Source: a phage
Sequence record: OZ413489.1
Direction: 5' to 3' (one strand)
Length of the DNA stretch: 64,000 nt
The translations under genes and the position numbers were made by a program. Of this stretch, positions 2 to 61,933 are shown in pieces (position 1 is the stretch's first letter; each line of letters opens with the position of its first letter). A model generated the notes under the pieces. It was not told the origin of the DNA. It ran no database searches and worked only from the letters and a program-made list of their open reading frames with translations.

Positions 2-400
2 ATGATTTCAGGTTTAACATGGCTGAGTAGGTATAGAGGGATCATAAAAGGTTTAGTTTTTGCAGCGGCTATAGGTACAGCTTATCTTGGGGCCGTGTAT
101 TGGTTTAACTCTAAGCTTAATGAAGCCTACCAAGAAGGTGTGTTAGCAACAGAGTTGAAGTGGGAACGGATCCTTGATCAGCAACAAAAGCAGGCCGACA
201 AAATTAAAATGGGCCACGCAGAGGAGGTTAAAAACCTTGAAAAATCCCTTTCTGATCTACAGGATAAATTAAATATAGCTGAGAGGGCAGGTAGAGAAAA
301 GCAGATTATCTACCTCCAATCGCCTGAAGGTAAGAAGTCAACACTTCCTGATCAGCTTATAGATATTTATAATGAGAGTATCAATCAGGAGGATCGATGA
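2..400 (+). CDS. i-spanin (Rz-like inner-membrane spanin)
   Basis: 132-aa ORF; N-terminal TM segment GIIKGLVFAAAIGTAYLGAVYWF then charged coiled-coil-like region; stop overlaps next start (ATGA). ATG at 2 may be the true start but upstream is outside the window. Confidence 0.45.
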   Translation: MISGLTWLSRYRGIIKGLVFAAAIGTAYLGAVYWFNSKLNEAYQEGVLATELKWERILDQQQKQADKIKMGHAEEVKNLEKSLSDLQDKLNIAERAGREKQIIYLQSPEGKKSTLPDQLIDIYNESINQEDR

Positions 401-684
401 GAGTTGCCACACTGTTTATTGCGTGCTTGTTATTATGTGGGTGTGCAACCAGCGTTGAGAGAGAATACAAGATTGACCCTCCGGATGTAGGAAGGTTGAT
501 TGTTAAACCCCCAGAAGGTGCCATGAAACCACCTGCTAAAGCTATGCCTTTGAAGAAAGGTGCGCCAGATGCAGTGAATTCTGGCATTATGAGGGATAAT
601 AATCTGTCTTGTAGCAATGATAGAGCTAAATTGATCATTTTGCAAGACTATATTAGAACACTTTTTCCAAAGGAGAGAGGTTAA
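397..684 (+). CDS. o-spanin (Rz1-like outer-membrane lipoprotein)
   Basis: 95 aa; signal peptide with lipobox-like LLLCGC; Pro-rich mature part; AGGAGG 5 nt upstream; stop overlaps terminase start (TAATG). Confidence 0.5.
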   Translation: MRVATLFIACLLLCGCATSVEREYKIDPPDVGRLIVKPPEGAMKPPAKAMPLKKGAPDAVNSGIMRDNNLSCSNDRAKLIILQDYIRTLFPKERG

Positions 685-1109
685 TGTCTAAGATTTACGG
701 ACCGTGTTCTGAAAAGCAGAAGATGATCCTAGAAAACGATGCAGATATTTTGGTAATCGGCGGTGCCGCAGGGTCTGGCAAGTCGTTCCTCTTGCAATTG
801 ATGCCACTTAAAATTATTGATGACCCCCACAGCTCTGTGGTTATGTTCCGAAGAACAACCCCACAGTTGGAAGGTGAGGGTGGATTATGGCCTAAAGCAG
901 TAGCTATTTATAGTGATCTGCCTGAAAACATTAAGCCAAAGTTTAGAGAGAAGGATCATAAGTTCATTTTTCCACGGTTTGATCCGAACACTGGCAAGTG
1001 GGATAGAAGCAAAAAGGGAGCTGTTGTAAAATACTGCCACATGGAGTATGTACAAGATAAGCTTAACCATCAGGGGCTTGAGTACACCATGGTTTGCTTC
1101 GATGAGGGT
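684..1109 (+). CDS. terL: terminase large subunit, exon 1 (ATPase N-terminal part)
   Basis: Walker A GGAAGSGKS and Walker B-like MVCFDE; frame closes with UAA at 1110-1112, which is the first codon of a group I intron. Confidence 0.8.
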
Positions 1110-1428
1110 TAATTTGTAGCTCTCGTAAAACCTCCCTAATTGCGGGGAAATCTTTATTATTGACACCACCAACCTGTCATGGTAACATGACAGAGGCTTC
1201 GAAGAGAGATCGAAGGTATGGTAACAGTGTGTTAATTTAGATAATCCGCAGCGAAGCATCCGAGAGGATGAACGTTCAACGACTAGTCGAAAGACGTAGA
1301 ATCAAGCGATTCGAAACGGGAGGGTAAGCGGTTGTTGTCGCTTATAAGATATAGTCTGGTCTGCATGGAGACATGCAGCTGCCTGAAAATGGCGGGGCAA
1401 GACTAGCGACCTTGCCCGAACATAAACG
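1110..1428 (+). ncRNA. group I intron 1 (ORF-less, self-splicing type)
   Basis: Core elements in order: P AATTGCGGGGAAA 1138-1150, Q AATCCGCAGC 1243-1252, R GTTCAACGACTAGTC 1274-1288, S AAGATATAGTC 1347-1356; GNRA-capped P9 hairpin 1361-1378; 7-bp P1 between exon 1103-1109 (UGAGGGU) and guide GCUCUCG 1119-1125 with U1109/G1119 wobble; 3' end at G1428 chosen by frame and by tail GAACAUAAACG shared with intron 2; alternative 3' sites 1443, 1446, 1449, 1461. Confidence 0.7.
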
Positions 1429-1745
1429 ACACAATTCGAATGGGAGCAGATAGACTATCTGATGTCTCGTCTGCGATCTCAGTCAAAGTATCCATCAAGA
1501 ATGGTTATCAGCTGTAACCCAGATTCAGAACACATGCTTGCCAAACTGGTTAGATGGTGGTTGGACGATGAAGGGTATCCAGATCCGGAGAAATGCGGTA
1601 AGAAAAGATATTTTATCCGACGCGACGGTGAATTTATCTGGGGAGACTCTAAAGAAGAGTTGATAGAGAAATACACCACGGTTAACGGACTGGGTGTGGA
1701 GATCAAGCCAAGACCGTTGTCATTCTCGTTCATAGGCGCAACCAT
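1429..1745 (+). CDS. terL: terminase large subunit, exon 2
   Basis: In frame with exon 1 when joined at 1109/1429; gives ...VCFDEG/TQFEWEQIDYLMSRLRSQSKYPSRMVISCNPD..., with DE-to-P spacing matching T4-type terminases (recollection); ends in a split codon AU at 1745. Confidence 0.6.
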
Positions 1746-2013
1746 TAAATAATAGTGGCTTCGTGCAGAAATGCACGTCGAATAACTTCGTTAATTGCTG
1801 GAAAATCCGATTGCTAAACGGACAATCAGCAGCCAAGCCTGAATATTCAGGAAGGTTCAACGACTATCCCGAGAGGGAGTAGGGCGCAAGCTTATGGCGC
1901 TCGAAAAGCGAAGCACCCTGAAAGGGGTGGTGATATAGTCTACTCTGCATGGTAACATGCAGCAGCACGTAATGGTGCGGAGGGTGGTGTTGCGACCACC
2001 TTTGAATATAAGG
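1746..2013 (+). ncRNA. group I intron 2 (ORF-less, paralogous to intron 1)
   Basis: P AATTGCTGGAAA 1793-1804, Q AATCAGCAGC 1824-1833, R GTTCAACGACTA 1855-1866, S GATATAGTC 1932-1940; GAAA-capped hairpin 1762-1777; P9 hairpin 1945-1962 (GUAA loop); 4-bp P1 exon CCAU 1742-1745 with GUGG 1755-1758; 3' end G2013 after tail GAAUAUAAGG; alternative 3' site G2031. Confidence 0.65.
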
Positions 2014-2918: not shown

Positions 2919-4475
2919 GTGTCCAAAAAGAACCGCAGGAAACACAACGCCACAGCCAAAACTGTGAATAAATCTGGGAACGCAGGCGCACCAACTCATA
3001 ATGTTCGTATGAGTGAGATCGGTTCTGGCGCACTTTCCCAAATTATGGCAGAATCGCAATCTATGATGGTTGAGGAATTGCGTTGGCCTCAGCTGATTGC
3101 CACAGTGGAGACTATGAAATGTGATTCCACAGTTGCTACTGCCTTAGATACAAAATATGTTTTCATCACGAAAGCATTCAATGATTTTAAGATCCTTTAT
3201 AATGTTAAAAGTGAAGACTCTAAGAAAGCTGCCGAGCTTATAGAGTATTCTTTGCGTAATTTGGCAAACCAACAAACTCTTCGAGATATTGCAAGAAGCG
3301 CAGCTACCTTTAACGAGTATGGTTTTTCACTGTTTGAGAAAGTATACCGCAGAGAGAAAGAAGGTAAATATGCCGGGATGCTTCTTATCGATAAAATTGC
3401 ATTCCGACCTCAGGCCAGCCTGTCCAGATCAGAGCCGTTTGTTTTTGATAAGAATAGCAGAACACTGACAGGTATTTATCAGTCACCTAATGCATTTCTA
3501 AACACTCAGAATGCACGCTGGGCTGGACCTCTTGCTGCAATGCCTTCAAAAAGCTTTAATGAGCCTGAAATTTTCATCCCTGCTAAAAAGCTTATGCTCA
3601 TGACCCTGTCAGGAACAGAATCTAACCCTGCAGGTGTGTCACCGATGATAGGTTGCTACAGATCTTTCCGTGAGAAAGTTCTGATTGAAAACCTTGAGGT
3701 TGTTGGCTGTTCCAAAGACCTTGGTGGTGTGCTTGAGCTGAAAATTCCTTCCAATATTTTGAACAAGGCCAGCATTGACCCGAATTCAATGGAAGGGAGA
3801 ATGGTTGCAGATCTTATGCTTGACGCAGCAAACGCCCATAGTGGTGAGCAAAGTTTCTTTATACTTCCGTCTGATAGAGATAAGTCTGGTAAAGAGCTTT
3901 ACTCCATGACCCTGAAGGGGGTTGACGGTATGGGTAAGCAGTATTCCACTAAAGATTTGATTGATGCCCGTAAGAAGGCGATTCTTGACCGTTTCGGTGC
4001 TGGCTTTATTAACCTCGGTAACGATAACGTTGGATCCTTCTCTCTGTCTGAGTCAAAACAGTCTATCCATGGTCATTTTGTTCAGCGTGATATAGATATT
4101 ATCACTGAAGCCTTCAATAAGGATCTTATTCCACAGCTTCTGGCATTGAATGGTATCATCCTTGAAGATGATGATATGCCTAAACTGAAACCTGGTCTGA
4201 TTGAAGAAGTGGATATGGAGAGCTTCTCCAAGTTTGTCCAGAGGATCGGTGCTGTAGGTTACTTGCCAAAAACTCCTGCAGTAATTAATAAGATTCTTGA
4301 AGTAGGCGGGTTTGATGAAAGATTTGACGAGGACATGGATCAGGAAGAGCTGATGAAGCTCTTGGGCCAGGACATCAGTAGAGCTGGTGATGGAATGGCT
4401 GCAGGATCCACTGGCAACGGCACTTCTAAGATATCATCAACCAGAGATAATTCCATATCCAACATGGAAAATTAA
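2919..4475 (+). CDS. portal protein
   Basis: 518 aa, GTG start with GAGGGG RBS; immediately after terminase; size and position typical of portal. Confidence 0.65.
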   Translation: MSKKNRRKHNATAKTVNKSGNAGAPTHNVRMSEIGSGALSQIMAESQSMMVEELRWPQLIATVETMKCDSTVATALDTKYVFITKAFNDFKILYNVKSEDSKKAAELIEYSLRNLANQQTLRDIARSAATFNEYGFSLFEKVYRREKEGKYAGMLLIDKIAFRPQASLSRSEPFVFDKNSRTLTGIYQSPNAFLNTQNARWAGPLAAMPSKSFNEPEIFIPAKKLMLMTLSGTESNPAGVSPMIGCYRSFREKVLIENLEVVGCSKDLGGVLELKIPSNILNKASIDPNSMEGRMVADLMLDAANAHSGEQSFFILPSDRDKSGKELYSMTLKGVDGMGKQYSTKDLIDARKKAILDRFGAGFINLGNDNVGSFSLSESKQSIHGHFVQRDIDIITEAFNKDLIPQLLALNGIILEDDDMPKLKPGLIEEVDMESFSKFVQRIGAVGYLPKTPAVINKILEVGGFDERFDEDMDQEELMKLLGQDISRAGDGMAAGSTGNGTSKISSTRDNSISNMEN

Positions 4476-35413: not shown

Positions 35414-37485
35414 TGGCAACAGCTATTTTTAAACCTTACCGTGATTACTCTACAATGGCTGCACGGTTTCATTACCGCACAGTTCAGGATACTGCAGTTC
35501 CTGGTAGGGATTATAATCATGTTGAGGGTGATGTAACTATCCCAATTGGGGCAACCAGTATTGAGATCCCAGTGGAAATTGTTGACAAATTACCCAACAG
35601 GTTGCCAAGAAGCTTCTTTATGGAGTTTTCATCAAAATCTCAAGGGGTGATGATTGGAACACAAAGGGCGAAATGTACAATAGTTTCAGATGAGAATCTT
35701 GACAGGATATCTTGGGATACTGTCGAGGAGAGAATGTTTCACCCAAGATATTGGGTTACATCTACCCAGCAGACTGAAAGCACCTGTATTGTTGCAGATA
35801 ATAACTGTTGTATTAACCGTTTAGTGTCAAGAACATATGGAGGTATGGCTGGGTGCATTTGGGAAACAGTTGACAAGTATGACCATTTCGGTATTGGGTT
35901 TGATGATCATTATGAGATGAGAAATACCAAGCTTTGGTTCAGAATGTCAATAACCAACGCCAGCAACTTCTCCACTCCTGAAAAGATGATTATGACTGTA
36001 GACCTTGTTGATGGCACAATCATCTATGTTCCTTTAGCTCAATATGCTGTCAGCATCTCAGAGGATAAGAATGTTGCAGAAATTCATATTGATTTCGAGG
36101 ACTGCGTCGGGATGGACCAGAACAACAATATGATGGGTGTTGATCCTCGACAGGTGAGAAGGATTTTAATACCGCTTATGCCTAAAGATTGGGTAAGCAA
36201 TAGCACAAACCCAAGAACGGAAAATGTAGAGTGTGAGTTGCGCCTAGATCTGCTTCAGCCAGACACAGGCTGGAAAATGATGCAACTTAACAATATTCAG
36301 GTGAAAGAACACGACGTTGGGATCTGCACAGCATATGACGATATGTGGAACGTGTCTCCTTTAAGGGTGTTGAACAATATCAAGCGTCTGGGCTATACCG
36401 GAACCATAAACCATTATGTTGGTATGAGTCATTATTATGACTACACATGGTCAGGAACTCAATGGTCTATAAACAGAACAGGAGCGCTAAACGCTGCAGC
36501 TTATAAATGGCATGATGATTTTATGTACAATGCCAAACGACATAACTTCGACGTTATGCAATCTGTAAGTTTTGAGCTTTTCAGCGATGCCTGCCCGTTG
36601 GAATGGACCCAAAGAGACTGGAACGATAACTACGCTAAAACAGGGTATACACCTTGTAGCTACCTCCTGTCTCCAACCATTGAAGAGGGTATGAATTTCC
36701 TTACTGCAGTATTTAAGAATTTTGCATCAGCCGCTATGAGAAACAACCTGCCAGTGATTATGCAGGTTGGTGAACCGTGGTGGTGGTACAATACCGATAC
36801 TCGTAGACCTTGTATTTATGATTACCCTACAAAGCAGGCGTTTTATGATGAGACAGGTGAGTATGCATTAGATATTGGGACTATTGACGATCCTAAAACT
36901 GGCGGTGTTTACGACAAGTATGTAGCATTTTGTCGTGGTAAGCTTGGCGCTCGTATTGCGGCTATTTCAAAGGCAATAAAGGCACACGCTGCATCAGCTC
37001 AGATGACAGCTCTACTGTTTTTCCCAACCATTATGGAAACCGAGCTTACGCAAAAGCTTAACCTTGCTGACCAATATAAAAAGGAAGCAGGTGCTCTTGA
37101 TTTCTTCTGCACCGAGTGCTACGATTGGGTGATGCAGGGAGGTATTGAAAAGGCAAAAGAGTCTGTAAACATACCTATCGTTAAGTTAGGTTGGCAACCG
37201 TCTGAAATACAATACCTTGCAGGGTTCGTTCCTAGTAAAGAGCTTGCTCCGGTATATGGTTACGACCCAACCAGGAATTACCAAGAATTTTTATGGAGAT
37301 GTATTTGCGGAAACATGGCAACTATAGAGTATAGATATCCTGAGGTAAAACAGTATGTGTGGGCATACCCGCAAGTAATGTCTGACAGCATCACTGTTAC
37401 CGCTAGAGATTCTACCGTGCTTCATATGGGGCAGGTTGCTCTGAAAGGGTATGTAGAAGATGTTGTCCCGCCAGACTTCTCATAA
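35413..37485 (+). CDS. tail-associated protein with Calx-beta-like N-terminus and enzyme-like body
   Basis: 690 aa; GRDYNHVEGDVTIPIGATSIEIPVEIVD resembles a Calx-beta fold; remainder Trp/Tyr-rich. Confidence 0.35.
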   Translation: MATAIFKPYRDYSTMAARFHYRTVQDTAVPGRDYNHVEGDVTIPIGATSIEIPVEIVDKLPNRLPRSFFMEFSSKSQGVMIGTQRAKCTIVSDENLDRISWDTVEERMFHPRYWVTSTQQTESTCIVADNNCCINRLVSRTYGGMAGCIWETVDKYDHFGIGFDDHYEMRNTKLWFRMSITNASNFSTPEKMIMTVDLVDGTIIYVPLAQYAVSISEDKNVAEIHIDFEDCVGMDQNNNMMGVDPRQVRRILIPLMPKDWVSNSTNPRTENVECELRLDLLQPDTGWKMMQLNNIQVKEHDVGICTAYDDMWNVSPLRVLNNIKRLGYTGTINHYVGMSHYYDYTWSGTQWSINRTGALNAAAYKWHDDFMYNAKRHNFDVMQSVSFELFSDACPLEWTQRDWNDNYAKTGYTPCSYLLSPTIEEGMNFLTAVFKNFASAAMRNNLPVIMQVGEPWWWYNTDTRRPCIYDYPTKQAFYDETGEYALDIGTIDDPKTGGVYDKYVAFCRGKLGARIAAISKAIKAHAASAQMTALLFFPTIMETELTQKLNLADQYKKEAGALDFFCTECYDWVMQGGIEKAKESVNIPIVKLGWQPSEIQYLAGFVPSKELAPVYGYDPTRNYQEFLWRCICGNMATIEYRYPEVKQYVWAYPQVMSDSITVTARDSTVLHMGQVALKGYVEDVVPPDFS

Positions 37486-39148: not shown

Positions 39149-39463
39149 GTGGAGTTGGATTTGGCGGCATTGTACGGTATCTGCATGGGTACCGTTGTCC
39201 CGATCTGTGTATGGGCTTTCAACCAGTGGCACACCAAATGGAAAGGCATTTCCAAGAGGTTGGATGAACTGGAGAAAGACCTCATCTTAGTGAAAAACAG
39301 TATGGTTACAAAAGATAAACTTGATTCCGTTATCGAGACCCGGTTAAGCAAGCTAGAGGCCGATATTAACGACCTTAAGCAGGATGTCAGGACAGATGTC
39401 TCCGGCATCCGAGCTGATGTACAAAAGATTTTGCACATGCTCGTAGAGCATAGTAAAAGGTAA
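39149..39463 (+). CDS. small membrane-anchored coiled-coil protein
   Basis: 104 aa; GTG start with AGAGGAGG RBS; hydrophobic N-terminus AALYGICMGTVVPICVWAF then coiled coil. Confidence 0.3.
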   Translation: MELDLAALYGICMGTVVPICVWAFNQWHTKWKGISKRLDELEKDLILVKNSMVTKDKLDSVIETRLSKLEADINDLKQDVRTDVSGIRADVQKILHMLVEHSKR

Positions 39464-55329: not shown

Positions 55330-55358
55330 TTGACTTTACTCTAACTCTACAATATAGT
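55330..55358 (+). promoter_or_regulatory. sigma70-like promoter, TTGACT-17-TATAGT
   Basis: -35 55330-55335, -10 55353-55358; in divergent intergenic region upstream of 55399. Confidence 0.5.
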
Positions 55359-59484: not shown

Positions 59485-59511
59485 CCCCGCTTCGGCGGGG
59501 ATTTTCTATTT
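59485..59511 (+). terminator. rho-independent terminator
   Basis: CCCCGC-TTCG-GCGGGG then ATTTTCTATTT. Confidence 0.65.
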
Positions 59512-59520
59512 GGAGTTATT

Positions 59521-60021
59521 GTGAAAATTAAGATCTTTGCTATTATTTTGAGCGCATTTTTATCGCTGCCTGTTGTTGCAGCACCAAAACAAAAAGTATA
59601 CCATACTTGCAAGCCATCAGATACTAAGGAAAACATTCTAGCATGCAATATCTACAGGGAAGCTAGAGGGGATGGCACGATGGGTATGCTGGCATCTGGG
59701 TTTGCCACCCTAAACAGGAAATCTCACCCCAAATACCCAGACACCATAAGAAAGATTGTCTACCAACCTAACCAGTTTTCGTGGACAAACCACGGCAAAA
59801 CTTTTAAGGTGACAGAAAAAGATTCATGGGATCACGCTAAAAGTCTTGCAAAGATGCTTCTAAAGGTCTATAATAACAACCATGTTGCATACATGGCTAT
59901 GGACATAACAGGTGGAGCAACACACTACCATACAACCAAAGTACGACCGAAATGGGCAAAAAAGATGCAGAGGACAGCTCAATTCGGGAGTCATATCTAC
60001 TACAAGGAGCGCAATAAATGA
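59521..60021 (+). CDS. secreted cell wall hydrolase (SleB-like)
   Basis: 166 aa; GTG start with GGAG RBS; cleavable signal peptide MKIKIFAIILSAFLSLPVVAAP; CNIYREARGDGTMGMLASGFATLNRK...YQPNQFSWTN matches the SleB/Hydrolase_2 pattern. Confidence 0.5.
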   Translation: MKIKIFAIILSAFLSLPVVAAPKQKVYHTCKPSDTKENILACNIYREARGDGTMGMLASGFATLNRKSHPKYPDTIRKIVYQPNQFSWTNHGKTFKVTEKDSWDHAKSLAKMLLKVYNNNHVAYMAMDITGGATHYHTTKVRPKWAKKMQRTAQFGSHIYYKERNK

Positions 60022-60563
60022 TTGTAAACAGTAATGAAACTAAAGCAGTACTAACCGGAAATATGGAGGTCACCAGGGGCTCAATTTCTCTGAACAAAGA
60101 GACTTTTGGGCTAATCATTAAAGGGATTTACGAAGATAAGGTGCTGGCAAGCTGCCGTGAACCAATCTTCAATGCTGTGGACTCTCATGTTGAGTCTGGA
60201 CGGGGTGATGTACCGATCATCATTCACTCCCCTACAGACCTTGAACCATACTTCTTTGTGCAGGACGTTGGATTGGGTATGTCAGAAGAGATGGTCCGCA
60301 ACACTTTCATGAACCTCGGGGAGTCAACCAAGCGCAACAGCAACGCTCTGGTAGGTAATAAAGGTGTAGGTTCAAAGGCCCCGTTCAGCATGGTTGACCC
60401 TGCAGATGTGGTTAGTGTGCCATACCAACACAATAGCGCCAAGTGCCGTGCATGCCGCTATGAGATTGTGGTAGCTCCGGAAGCACGCAAAGATGGAGAC
60501 CCTATTGAATATGTAGTTGATCGTGACGGTAACACTATCGACATTCTTTACGAGGAGGCGTAA
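60018..60563 (+). CDS. GHKL-type (Bergerat fold) ATPase domain protein
   Basis: 181 aa; N-box EPIFNAVD, G1 box DVGLGM, G2 box GNKGVGSKAPFS. Confidence 0.45.
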   Translation: MIVNSNETKAVLTGNMEVTRGSISLNKETFGLIIKGIYEDKVLASCREPIFNAVDSHVESGRGDVPIIIHSPTDLEPYFFVQDVGLGMSEEMVRNTFMNLGESTKRNSNALVGNKGVGSKAPFSMVDPADVVSVPYQHNSAKCRACRYEIVVAPEARKDGDPIEYVVDRDGNTIDILYEEA

Positions 60564-61933
60564 TGGAAAAAGGGCAGTATGATGTAGGCACAGATGCTGC
60601 CCTCGTTGCAATCATGAGCGGTGAGAATGTCTTCGTTTCAGGACCTGCAGGTTGTGGGAAGACGTATCTCATCAACATGATCCAGTCGATGTATGGAGAC
60701 TCTTGCATAACGGTTGCCCCGACAGGGGTAGCCGCTTTAAACGTTAATGGAGCAACAGCACACCGAACCTTCGATCTTGCAGCAGGTGTGAGCATGGAGT
60801 CAGACTGGACCGCAATAAGGGCAAAAACAGCAAAGCCTTTGAAAAGCAAGGCATTTACCATCCTAATTATCGATGAAATCTCTATGATCCGTGCTGATAA
60901 GTTTATAGAGATGGATAGGAAACTCCGCTTCCTTCGAAAAAATGACAAACCTTTCGGAGGCATACAGGTCATATTGTTTGGCGATTTTTACCAGGCACCT
61001 CCTGTTGTCTCTTCTATGGAGAAGGAAGCCTACTTCAACTTCTACCATACGGACCTGTGTTGCTATACCGAATCTTGGAAAGAGCTTGACCTCCACAACA
61101 TAGCCCTAATAGATCAGTTCCGACAGGAGTCTATTCGATTTGCCACAATGCTCAACTGTGTTCGTGAGGGTCGTCGCATAAAAGAGGTTGTAGCAGAACT
61201 TAATGCTCGCTGTTACAAAGGAGGTGTACCAACAGATGCTCTCACAATTTGCGCCACCAACAAACAAGCAGAGGAAGTGAACAGAAGGTTCTATGATGCC
61301 ATCAACGCCCCAGAGAAGGTATACACTGGTGAAATGAAGGGTAAGTTTCCCTCCACCCTGCCAGTTGAGCAGGAGATGAAGTTGAAAATTGGCATGAAAG
61401 TTATGATAACCGCCAACGATGTTGACCCGACGCACAAAGTACCTTATTATGTTAACGGAACACGTGCCACAATTGTTAAATTTAAGAACAAGGCGGTGGT
61501 GGTAGAGCTTGAAGATGGAACACAGGTTGACATAGAGCAGAGGTTGTGGGAGAATAACGAGTATAAGCCATCTCAGAGATACAACATTGCAGAAAGGAAG
61601 ATGGAGAAGTTTATAGAGAGGGTAGTGATTGGGTCATACAGGCAACTTCCTCTGAAATCTGGGTATGCCGTAACATCTCATAAAAGTCAAGGACTTACGC
61701 TAGATTGTTACAACCTGGACCTTGGAAAGAACGGAGCTTTCTCTCCTGGGATGACGTATGTTGCTTTGAGTCGGGTTAAGACAATACAAGGAATAAACTT
61801 GTTGCGTCCACTAAGAGAAGTTGACATTATTGTTGACCCGCGAGTCGTAGAGTTTTACAATACAACATTCCCTGACTTAGACAAAATTGTCAGGAAAGAT
61901 TTTGAAACCAGAGCCGAAGAGGGGGACGTATGA
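60563..61933 (+). CDS. SF1B DNA helicase (Dda/Pif1/RecD-like)
   Basis: 456 aa; Walker A GPAGCGKT, Walker B ILIIDEISM, GDFYQAPPV, SHKSQGLTLD. Confidence 0.6.
   Translation: MEKGQYDVGTDAALVAIMSGENVFVSGPAGCGKTYLINMIQSMYGDSCITVAPTGVAALNVNGATAHRTFDLAAGVSMESDWTAIRAKTAKPLKSKAFTILIIDEISMIRADKFIEMDRKLRFLRKNDKPFGGIQVILFGDFYQAPPVVSSMEKEAYFNFYHTDLCCYTESWKELDLHNIALIDQFRQESIRFATMLNCVREGRRIKEVVAELNARCYKGGVPTDALTICATNKQAEEVNRRFYDAINAPEKVYTGEMKGKFPSTLPVEQEMKLKIGMKVMITANDVDPTHKVPYYVNGTRATIVKFKNKAVVVELEDGTQVDIEQRLWENNEYKPSQRYNIAERKMEKFIERVVIGSYRQLPLKSGYAVTSHKSQGLTLDCYNLDLGKNGAFSPGMTYVALSRVKTIQGINLLRPLREVDIIVDPRVVEFYNTTFPDLDKIVRKDFETRAEEGDV

Follow-up and report, generated by a model that had tools for sequence, protein, structure and literature searches.

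A signal-peptide-bearing SleB-type cell wall hydrolase in the early region of an rV5-like coliphage: a putative accessory periplasmic enzyme, unlikely to be the endolysin of the phage

The DNA analysed here, hereafter the window, is a stretch of 64,000 nucleotides from a phage (sequence record OZ413489.1), the source region being 98–99% identical to rV5-like coliphages (Vequintavirus). Near its right end lies a gene that the first-pass annotation had placed at exactly 59521–60021 of the plus strand, and both its limits and its translation signals were confirmed. The features of the gene and of its product are the following:

59512–59515, plus strand: Shine–Dalgarno element GGAG, 5 nt before the GTG start codon, read from the sequence
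59521–60021, plus strand: coding sequence of a SleB-type (Hydrolase_2) cell wall hydrolase, 166 amino acids, GTG start, equivalent to rV5 gene 2
59521–59580, plus strand: signal peptide, residues 1–20 (MKIKIFAIILSAFLSLPVVA), with a predicted signal peptidase I (SPase I) cut between Ala20 and Ala21 (VVA/AP)
59581–60018, plus strand: mature catalytic domain, residues 21–166 (146 amino acids, 16.9 kDa and pI ~9.95, as computed)
59608–59646, plus strand: segment from the codon of Cys30 (59608–59610) to that of Cys42 (59644–59646), the only cysteines of the protein
59659–59661, plus strand: codon of Glu47, the predicted catalytic residue within the motif YREARGD, by alignment with SleB (4F55/4FET)

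The SleB/Hydrolase_2 pattern noticed at first reading is upheld by profile, sequence and fold comparisons alike. The protein matches Pfam PF07486 (Hydrolase_2) over profile positions 2–100 of 100, with 70.4 bits against a cut-off of 27 (E = 2e-19), its best PHROG is family 938, which bears the name “endolysin”, and a sequence search of the PDB returns the SleB catalytic domains 4F55 and 4FET only. An AlphaFold (AF2) model, built on a shallow alignment of eight homologues (the word-indexed homologue search gave 10 proteins), has a pLDDT of 87.8, low for residues 1–20, and the only significant PDB matches that Foldseek finds with it are again 4F55 and 4FET, at target-normalised TM scores of 0.74–0.77. 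Since the SleB equivalog profile of NCBIfam (TIGR02869) is matched with 48.3 bits, below its cut-off of 236.5, and only in its C-terminal half (profile positions 83–201), the hydrolase has a SleB-type catalytic domain but is not a SleB orthologue.

Glu47 of YREARGD aligns with the Glu of YGESRGE in 4F55 and 4FET, which we take to be the catalytic Glu157 of B. cereus SleB, a residue reportedly described as such by Li et al. in 2012. It is invariant across the 8 aligned homologues and the whole invariant core of the family is intact, which argues for an active enzyme; in view of the SleB-type fold and of the catalytic Glu, a lytic transglycosylase cutting glycan strands is the likely identity of this enzyme. 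Homologues were detected by tblastn in 1266 phage records and three architectures were seen among them, namely the catalytic domain only, as in Pseudomonas phage Tr60_Ab31; a domain preceded by an N-terminal membrane anchor, as in PAK_P1, encoded in a region with DNA ligase; and a domain behind a classical signal peptide, encoded in the early/replication regions of large virulent phages having another endolysin, such as Vequintavirus (the window), Seunavirus, Certrevirus, Septuagintavirus, Phapecoctavirus and T5-like phages (T5.083).

The N-terminus of the hydrolase, MKIK-IFAIILSAFLSL-PVVA/APKQ, has the n-, h- and c-regions that make up a Sec/SPase I signal. Its n-region is basic and its core strongly hydrophobic (Kyte–Doolittle hydrophobicity of 2.7 over 12 residues); a helix-breaking Pro follows, positions −3 and −1 are occupied by small residues, and the (−3,−1) rule allows a single cleavage site, after residue 20. 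Signals of similar design and differing sequence are present in the homologues of Seunavirus 4MG, Septuagintavirus A73, Justusliebigvirus alia and the T5-like phage DT571/2, all 35–50% identical to the hydrolase. The Sec-type signal peptide proposed at the outset is therefore borne out by sequence rules and by conservation in homologues, and it is from these two that cleavage and export are deduced. The two cysteines lie just past the signal and are both kept in the homologues of 4MG, A73 and alia; a Cys30–Cys42 disulfide formed in the periplasm is possible. A cleavable N-terminal signal peptide, as predicted here, is also a trait of Sec-exported endolysins of the Lys44 type.

Three other readings of the N-terminus were considered and discarded. 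A lipoprotein is excluded by the lack of a lipobox Cys at +1 and a Tat substrate by the lack of a twin arginine, while the core is more hydrophobic, and contains less Gly/Ala/Ser, than would suit a SAR endolysin, sequence rules giving 10 strongly hydrophobic residues among the 17 from I5 to A21, then Pro and V-x-A/A.

The transcriptional setting of the gene is defined by three neighbouring features:

55330–55358, plus strand: sigma-70-like promoter TTGACT-17-TATAGT, equivalent to rV5 P010, the nearest predicted upstream promoter, heading the rightward unit to which the hydrolase gene belongs
59485–59511, plus strand: intrinsic-terminator-like hairpin CCCCGC-TTCG-GCGGGG followed by ATTTTCTATTT, found by a terminator scan and equivalent to rV5 t003
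60018–60563, plus strand: the next gene, an in-frame fusion of rIIA (residues 1 to ~124) and rIIB (residues ~345–401), whose ATG overlaps the hydrolase stop codon

The terminator that had been placed upstream of the gene is indeed there, the GC-rich hairpin and its T-run being identical to terminator t003 listed with a ΔG of −16 in Table S4 of the rV5 paper. Only about 10 nt separate its end from the start codon/RBS of the hydrolase. A GC-rich hairpin also occurs at the equivalent site 5′ of the orthologues in 4MG, A73 and alia, its position being the same across four genera. GTG or TTG serves as start codon in three of five orthologues. On the other hand, the companion claim that the gene is transcribed as its own unit after this terminator did not survive, because no promoter between the terminator and the hydrolase start emerges from a sigma-70 scan, from the rV5 promoter list or from a search with the rV5 late motif, and because the TGA of the hydrolase overlaps the ATG of the following gene (ATGA, 60018–60021), an arrangement that suggests translational coupling of the two. 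P010 sits in a divergent promoter region adjoining an Srd-like anti-sigma gene. The unit proposed in the rV5 paper (10-1-238-164) takes in the stretch from gene 10 to gene 1 and continues into the replication genes, and the P010 unit also carries a MoxR ATPase, rIIA/B, helicase, primase and polymerase.

The late motif of rV5, TGGTAAAATA, has 20 matches in the window versus 5.8 expected, a number reached by no shuffle; those on the plus strand lie almost all in the structural block and none is present on this strand between 46.4 and 62.9 kb. The early-region placement originally assigned to the gene is thus supported by its location in a sigma-70-driven replication-gene unit from which the late motif is absent, the timing of expression being deduced from promoter and terminator motifs. 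The gene thus lies in the non-late region; not forming a transcription unit by itself, it has to be transcribed by read-through of t003. The conserved hairpin and the GTG/TTG starts, taken together with the toxicity reported for an orthologue (see below), suggest that expression is kept low. Throughout the Vequintavirinae, the hairpin and the SleB-like gene are followed, in this order, by an optional small two-TMD gene, an optional rIIA–rIIB pair and helicase. A scan of the window for small membrane proteins adjoining the hydrolase found only an antisense open reading frame of 73 amino acids (59897–60118, minus strand), which was judged spurious.

The gene following the hydrolase deserves a description of its own. 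In place of rIIA it encodes rIIA residues 1 to ~124 joined to the last ~57 residues of rIIB. The fusion arose by loss of 2653 bp that are present in MaxTheCat, the crossover lying in CATGGT within a 32-nt imperfect repeat. The deletion occurs in none of 122 phage records and its junction is absent from the IMG/VR and JGI metagenomes; two public sequencing runs contain the 181-aa fusion protein in identical form and with identical neighbours.

The hydrolase gene is by no means new. It is 99–100% identical to rV5 gene 2 and is found in 116 phage records, whose copies have a DNA identity of 95% or more. Table S3 of the rV5 paper (2013) lists gene 2 as “cell wall hydrolase, 166 aa, PF07486”, and Buttimer et al. 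2020 (PMC7344957) described the SleB-like family with its signal peptide, its conservation in all Vequintavirinae genera and the toxicity of a Certrevirus orthologue upon expression in E. coli (data not shown there), a description that later papers repeat. In consequence of the 2013 annotation and of this description, the observation is already in the literature: the hydrolase, its signal peptide, its conservation and its toxicity have been published and the gene is annotated in more than 100 genomes, so that as a discovery this ordinary, known gene carries little weight. As to functional, transcriptomic or essentiality data on gene 2, T5.083, CR3_087 and CB7_83, the searchable literature yielded annotation-level statements only.

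What role, then, could such an enzyme play? Two readings had been offered by the first-pass annotation, a secretory-type endolysin separated from the spanins by almost the whole genome and a periplasmic wall-remodelling enzyme. The spanin genes open the window:

2–400, plus strand: i-spanin, also annotated in MaxTheCat
397–684, plus strand: o-spanin (lipobox LLCGC), also annotated in MaxTheCat

They are indeed far from the hydrolase, at a distance of 59 kb, but “almost the whole genome” is overstated for genomes of 135–140 kb. The MaxTheCat record begins with i-spanin, o-spanin and TerL exactly as the window does. Two group I introns split TerL in the window, an arrangement already known from rV5 and LL12.

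In MaxTheCat, a 156-aa “endolysin” is encoded by bas57_0207 (corresponding to rV5 gp89), a gene on the opposite strand that adjoins DNA ligase and lies upstream of the spanins at a distance of about 10 kb. The protein lacks a signal sequence and is closely homologous to the lambda R lytic transglycosylase (PDB 1AM7, E = 3e-56). A canonical endolysin beside the spanins upstream of the window had been named in advance as the finding that would speak against an endolysin role; in substance this is what the relatives show, although in them the enzyme lies some 10 kb upstream, not beside the spanins. Its site falls outside the window, and its presence in the source phage is deduced from relatives that are 98–99% identical here. 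The gene is found in 115 records versus 116 with the SleB-like gene, ~110 of them from shared organism-name groups. Its product is the “obvious lysin” of the rV5 paper (gp89), and the CPT announcement of LL12 counts a gp89-type lysin and the spanins as the lysis genes, the holin not being identifiable. Its orthologue LysECP26 has been purified, is muralytic and lyses Gram-negative cells with a permeabilised outer membrane.

Because some 115 close relatives also carry this lambda-R homologue without signal peptide, it is unlikely that the SleB-like hydrolase is the endolysin of the phage, and the proposal of a secretory-type endolysin finds no support. Other properties of the hydrolase are consistent with this assessment. 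A canonical holin-dependent endolysin accumulates in the cytoplasm without an export signal, whereas the hydrolase is predicted to carry a Sec signal; late expression and linkage to holin and spanins, likewise expected of a canonical endolysin, are not observed for a gene that lies 59 kb from the spanins, without late motif and in a replication-gene unit, the holin candidates being elsewhere. The type of the other endolysin differs between Vequintavirinae genera, and the SleB-like gene shows no less conservation than the endolysin (116 records, all at least 95% identical). A canonical endolysin by or near the holin, combined with a distant exported SleB-like gene, is likewise found in Seunavirus, Certrevirus, Septuagintavirus, Phapecoctavirus and T5-like phages. 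As a check for a third muralytic enzyme, the “putative glycosidase” encoded upstream of the gp129-like gene in the relatives was compared with Pfam, NCBIfam and the PDB and gave no match.

The second of the two readings, the periplasmic wall-remodelling enzyme, is reasonable and, judged from the sequence, consistent with all the evidence. In the form preferred here, to which we assign a probability of about 0.5, the gene product is a low-dose, holin-independent, Sec-exported, soluble periplasmic lytic transglycosylase with an accessory role. From the features described above we infer the export, cleavage, enzymatic activity, time and level of expression and biological role of the hydrolase, as follows. 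The pre-protein would be exported by Sec and cut by signal peptidase I after Ala20, thereby releasing into the periplasm a soluble, very basic enzyme of 146 residues that would cut the glycan strands of peptidoglycan, most likely by lytic transglycosylase action. Production would probably occur from early or mid infection and at a low dose, given that the gene resides in a sigma-70 replication unit, behind a terminator, has a GTG start and is read together with rIIA. The sacculus may thus be nicked or loosened in the course of infection, or primed for a fast and complete final lysis, whereas lysis proper would be accomplished by the lambda-type endolysin, the holin and the spanins; the role is regarded as accessory because the hydrolase would reach the wall without the holin.

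A soluble periplasmic muralytic enzyme present from early infection should risk premature lysis, and for this reason some restraint must be assumed, be it low dose, narrow substrate or latency. As to the substrate, Bacillus SleB needs muramic-δ-lactam, which E. coli murein does not contain, so that its specificity is not transferable to the phage enzyme.

Latency is the essence of an alternative which is somewhat unlikely, namely that the hydrolase is a second endolysin, exported early, held inactive in the energised envelope and switched on when the holin collapses the membrane potential, so as to act alongside the lambda-type endolysin at lysis. The model for such an activation is Lys44, the Sec-exported endolysin of Oenococcus phage fOg44. 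It would fit with a signal peptide that is predicted to be cleavable rather than a SAR anchor, with the linkage to rIIA/rIIB, genes for lysis timing or membrane integrity in T4, and with the toxicity upon over-expression (Buttimer et al. 2020, PMC7344957). In Seunavirus, Septuagintavirus and Certrevirus, moreover, the gene is directly followed by one for a small two-TMD protein, proposed as a class II holin by Buttimer et al. 2020 (PMC7344957). Vequintavirus, however, has no adjacent two-TMD gene and homologues of these partners were not detected in its genome: phmmer, blastp and tblastn comparisons of the two-TMD genes of 4MG and A73 with Vequintavirus, including the 78-aa protein of the rV5 gp129 type or the “putative holin” of BASEL, gave noise only, and no PHROG family is common to the two-TMD partners and Vequintavirus proteins, as is to be expected of membrane proteins this short. 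The gene, furthermore, belongs to a non-late unit. Finally, we know of no soluble periplasmic enzyme in Gram-negative hosts for which activation of this kind has been described.

If lysis is taken care of by a normal endolysin, what could be the reason why several large lytic coliphage groups keep an exported SleB-type enzyme besides it? One answer, which is speculative and improbable enough to be offered with reserve, is that the enzyme belongs to a module for holin-independent conditioning of the envelope, hitherto unrecognised and serving a purpose other than lysis, in several unrelated lineages of large virulent enterobacterial phages. According to this proposal the rV5-like, phAPEC8-like and T5-like phages would each keep an early, Sec-exported SleB-type enzyme together with a swappable true endolysin, and the conditioning could consist, for example, in a controlled loosening of the sacculus or in a functional tie to the rII membrane-integrity proteins. 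Were this so, the natural rIIA::rIIB deletion alongside the gene would represent an informative genetic background.

A role that is not lytic at all, such as altering the wall or the periplasm so as to block superinfecting phages, aiding an envelope-spanning process or simply binding peptidoglycan, appears doubtful. The superinfection-exclusion proteins Imm and Sp of T4 provide a parallel for an exported product of the early region, and the conservation of the hydrolase beside varied true endolysins would be compatible with such a function; the intact catalytic Glu and invariant family core argue instead for an active enzyme, and nothing found here ties the hydrolase to exclusion.

Very improbable is the assumption that the hydrolase is the main, secretory endolysin and the lambda-R homologue the accessory enzyme. 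Several database records as well as PHROG 938 do name it “endolysin”, SleB-type proteins are genuine endolysins in some phages (e.g., Tr60_Ab31), and the gene is conserved in all Vequintavirinae genera where the type of the other endolysin varies. Yet the lambda-R homologue occurs in nearly as many relatives (115 versus 116 records), is muralytic in vitro and is called the lysin by both the CPT and the rV5 authors, whereas the hydrolase gene lacks a late promoter motif and lies well away from spanins and holin candidates, and an enzyme exported early cannot time lysis alone. The same names call for caution in annotation, since PHROG-based pipelines that label the hydrolase “endolysin” can mislead enzybiotic mining and lysis-cassette calls.

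Lastly, a virion-associated lysin that pierces the wall during DNA injection, as might be imagined for a muralytic domain in a myovirus whose relatives have other genes annotated as “cell wall hydrolase” or “tail lysozyme”, is hardly tenable, for virion presence and a gene in the structural module, the marks of virion-associated peptidoglycan hydrolases, are not seen here: virions are put together in the cytoplasm, from which the predicted cleavable Sec signal would remove the protein, the gene is not part of the structural block and has no late motif, the baseplate has candidates of its own, and none of six tryptic peptides of the hydrolase appears in the rV5 virion MS table.

Compared with known systems, the accessory periplasmic enzyme favoured here finds its closest counterparts in rV5 gene 2 (DQ832317/NC_011041), MaxTheCat bas57_0064 and the corresponding genes of LL12 and Mangalyan, which are the same gene (99–100% identical). 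Gene 2 of rV5 has the same length, t003 upstream and the overlap with rIIA, and the window differs in that the rIIA::rIIB fusion replaces the rIIA–rIIB pair. CB7_83 and the other orthologues of Certrevirus, Seunavirus and Septuagintavirus share the SleB-like domain, the signal peptide and a separate endolysin candidate, with toxicity upon expression reported (PMC7344957), the homologues of 4MG and A73 having 41–49% identity to the hydrolase. In these three genera a small two-TMD gene lies directly downstream, Certrevirus being without rIIA/B, whereas in Vequintavirus it is rIIA that directly follows and there is no adjacent two-TMD gene.

The “cell wall hydrolase SleB” of the T5.083 type (Demerecviridae) likewise consists of Hydrolase_2 behind a classical signal peptide, and its gene is also placed among early-region genes, far from the holin–endolysin pair. 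It belongs to an unrelated lineage, however, with ~40% identity to the hydrolase over the catalytic domain, another cysteine pattern and no upstream hairpin. Bacillus SleB, the spore cortex-lytic lytic transglycosylase (4F55, 4FET), has the catalytic fold and the Glu in common with the phage enzyme at 24% identity, whereas its N-terminal peptidoglycan-binding domain is absent from the latter. ORF65 of Tr60_Ab31 shares with the hydrolase the catalytic domain and a GEARGE-type motif; unlike it, this protein has no signal peptide and its gene immediately follows one for a multi-TMD holin-like protein, in a position downstream of Q with an Rz-like spanin nearby, so that here the SleB-type protein is evidently a true endolysin.

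Lys44 of fOg44 and the SAR endolysins P1 Lyz and R21 get to the wall through Sec without a holin, as is predicted for the hydrolase. SAR domains, on the other hand, are weakly hydrophobic, rich in Gly/Ala/Ser and uncleaved, whereas the core of the hydrolase (IFAIILSAFLSL) is strongly hydrophobic and is followed by P-V-V-A/A; furthermore, Lys44, P1 Lyz and R21 are the only endolysins of their phages and are encoded in the lysis cassette, unlike the hydrolase.

Immediately after the gene of the putatively exported Hydrolase_2 enzyme (SleB-like; rV5 gene 2), the window carries an in-frame fusion of two rII genes. The features of this stretch are:

60018-60563, rIIA(1-~124)::rIIB(~345-401) fusion gene
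about 60389-60420, fusion junction
60563-61933, + strand, PIF1/RecD-like helicase, 456 aa
59897-60118, - strand, 73-aa ORF with two hydrophobic stretches, overlapping the hydrolase gene at its 3' end and the fusion gene at its 5' end

Relative to MaxTheCat, a well-annotated Vequintavirus, a 2653-bp deletion takes out most of rIIA and rIIB; the crossover falls in CATGGT, within a 32-nt imperfect repeat from which rIIA and rIIB each acquire a peptide of similar sequence (MVD..DV.SV). The deletion was found in none of 122 matching phage records and the junction was not found in IMG/VR or JGI metagenomes. Two Logan-assembled runs (ERR15372739 and SRR35114172) do contain an identical fusion protein in the same gene neighbourhood. 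The helicase is 456 aa long in the window and in both Logan contigs, as against 463 aa in the MaxTheCat annotation; the alignment shows a 1-nt indel that shifts the end of the gene relative to the next one. The 73-aa antisense ORF, without evidence of coding, is probably a chance ORF.

On its 5' side, the SleB-like gene is preceded, across a short spacer, by a GC-rich hairpin whose position is common to four genera, the hairpin sequences themselves being unrelated:

window 59485-59500, hairpin
L005 (4MG, Seunavirus) 3964-3981, hairpin
L006 (A73, Septuagintavirus) 3954-3978, hairpin
L007 (alia, Justusliebigvirus) 3918-3938, hairpin

In alia the hairpin is followed by a promoter-like TTGCAA-17-TACAAT. 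The recurrence of the hairpin at one position, together with the start codons used across the four genera (GTG, TTG, ATG and TTG), suggests that attenuation of this gene is conserved.

On the 3' side, a small two-TMD gene directly follows the SleB-like gene in two of these genera, as is also reported for Certrevirus:

L005 4536-4709, 4MG_271, 57 aa
L006 4507-4719, A73_74, 70 aa

These two proteins share no detectable similarity, and neither resembles a known protein of Vequintavirus to a detectable degree. Two further loci are of possible relevance to lysis:

window 39149-39463, + strand, among the tail-fibre genes, 104-aa protein (single N-terminal TMD, C-terminal part a coiled coil)
L013 (MaxTheCat, outside the window) 36298-37089, - strand, bas57_0169/bas57_0168 pair

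The 104-aa protein (PHROG 5345; weak XhlA-like and fibritin-like matches) could be a holin or lysis regulator, a candidacy prompted by the lack of an assigned holin in this phage group, or else a fibre-assembly factor. In MaxTheCat, the gene of a 78-aa two-TMD counterpart of the putative rV5 holin gp129 lies directly 3' of that of a 174-aa "putative glycosidase" with no match in Pfam, NCBIfam or PDB; these two could constitute another lysis-related pair in rV5-like phages.

The rV5 late-promoter-like motif TGGTAAAATA (at most one mismatch) is found 20 times, with 5.8 expected; nearly all of these occurrences fall in the structural block (window 1-46400) and on the + strand, a distribution that supports its being a real late-promoter element. 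The large terminase gene is cut into three ORFs (684-1112, 1462-1752 and 2033-2818) by two introns:

window 1100-1378, group I intron (Rfam RF00028, 84 bits)
window 1736-1962, group I intron (RF00028, 96 bits)

Such TerL introns are already known from both rV5 and LL12. The TerL of MaxTheCat is uninterrupted; across this region the window is collinear with RudolfGeigy.

As to the rII locus, 4MG displays the order SleB-like gene, two-TMD gene, rIIA, rIIB and helicase, rII is naturally missing at the corresponding locus of Septuagintavirus and Certrevirus, and the fusion in the window is reminiscent of the rII deletion fusions of T4.
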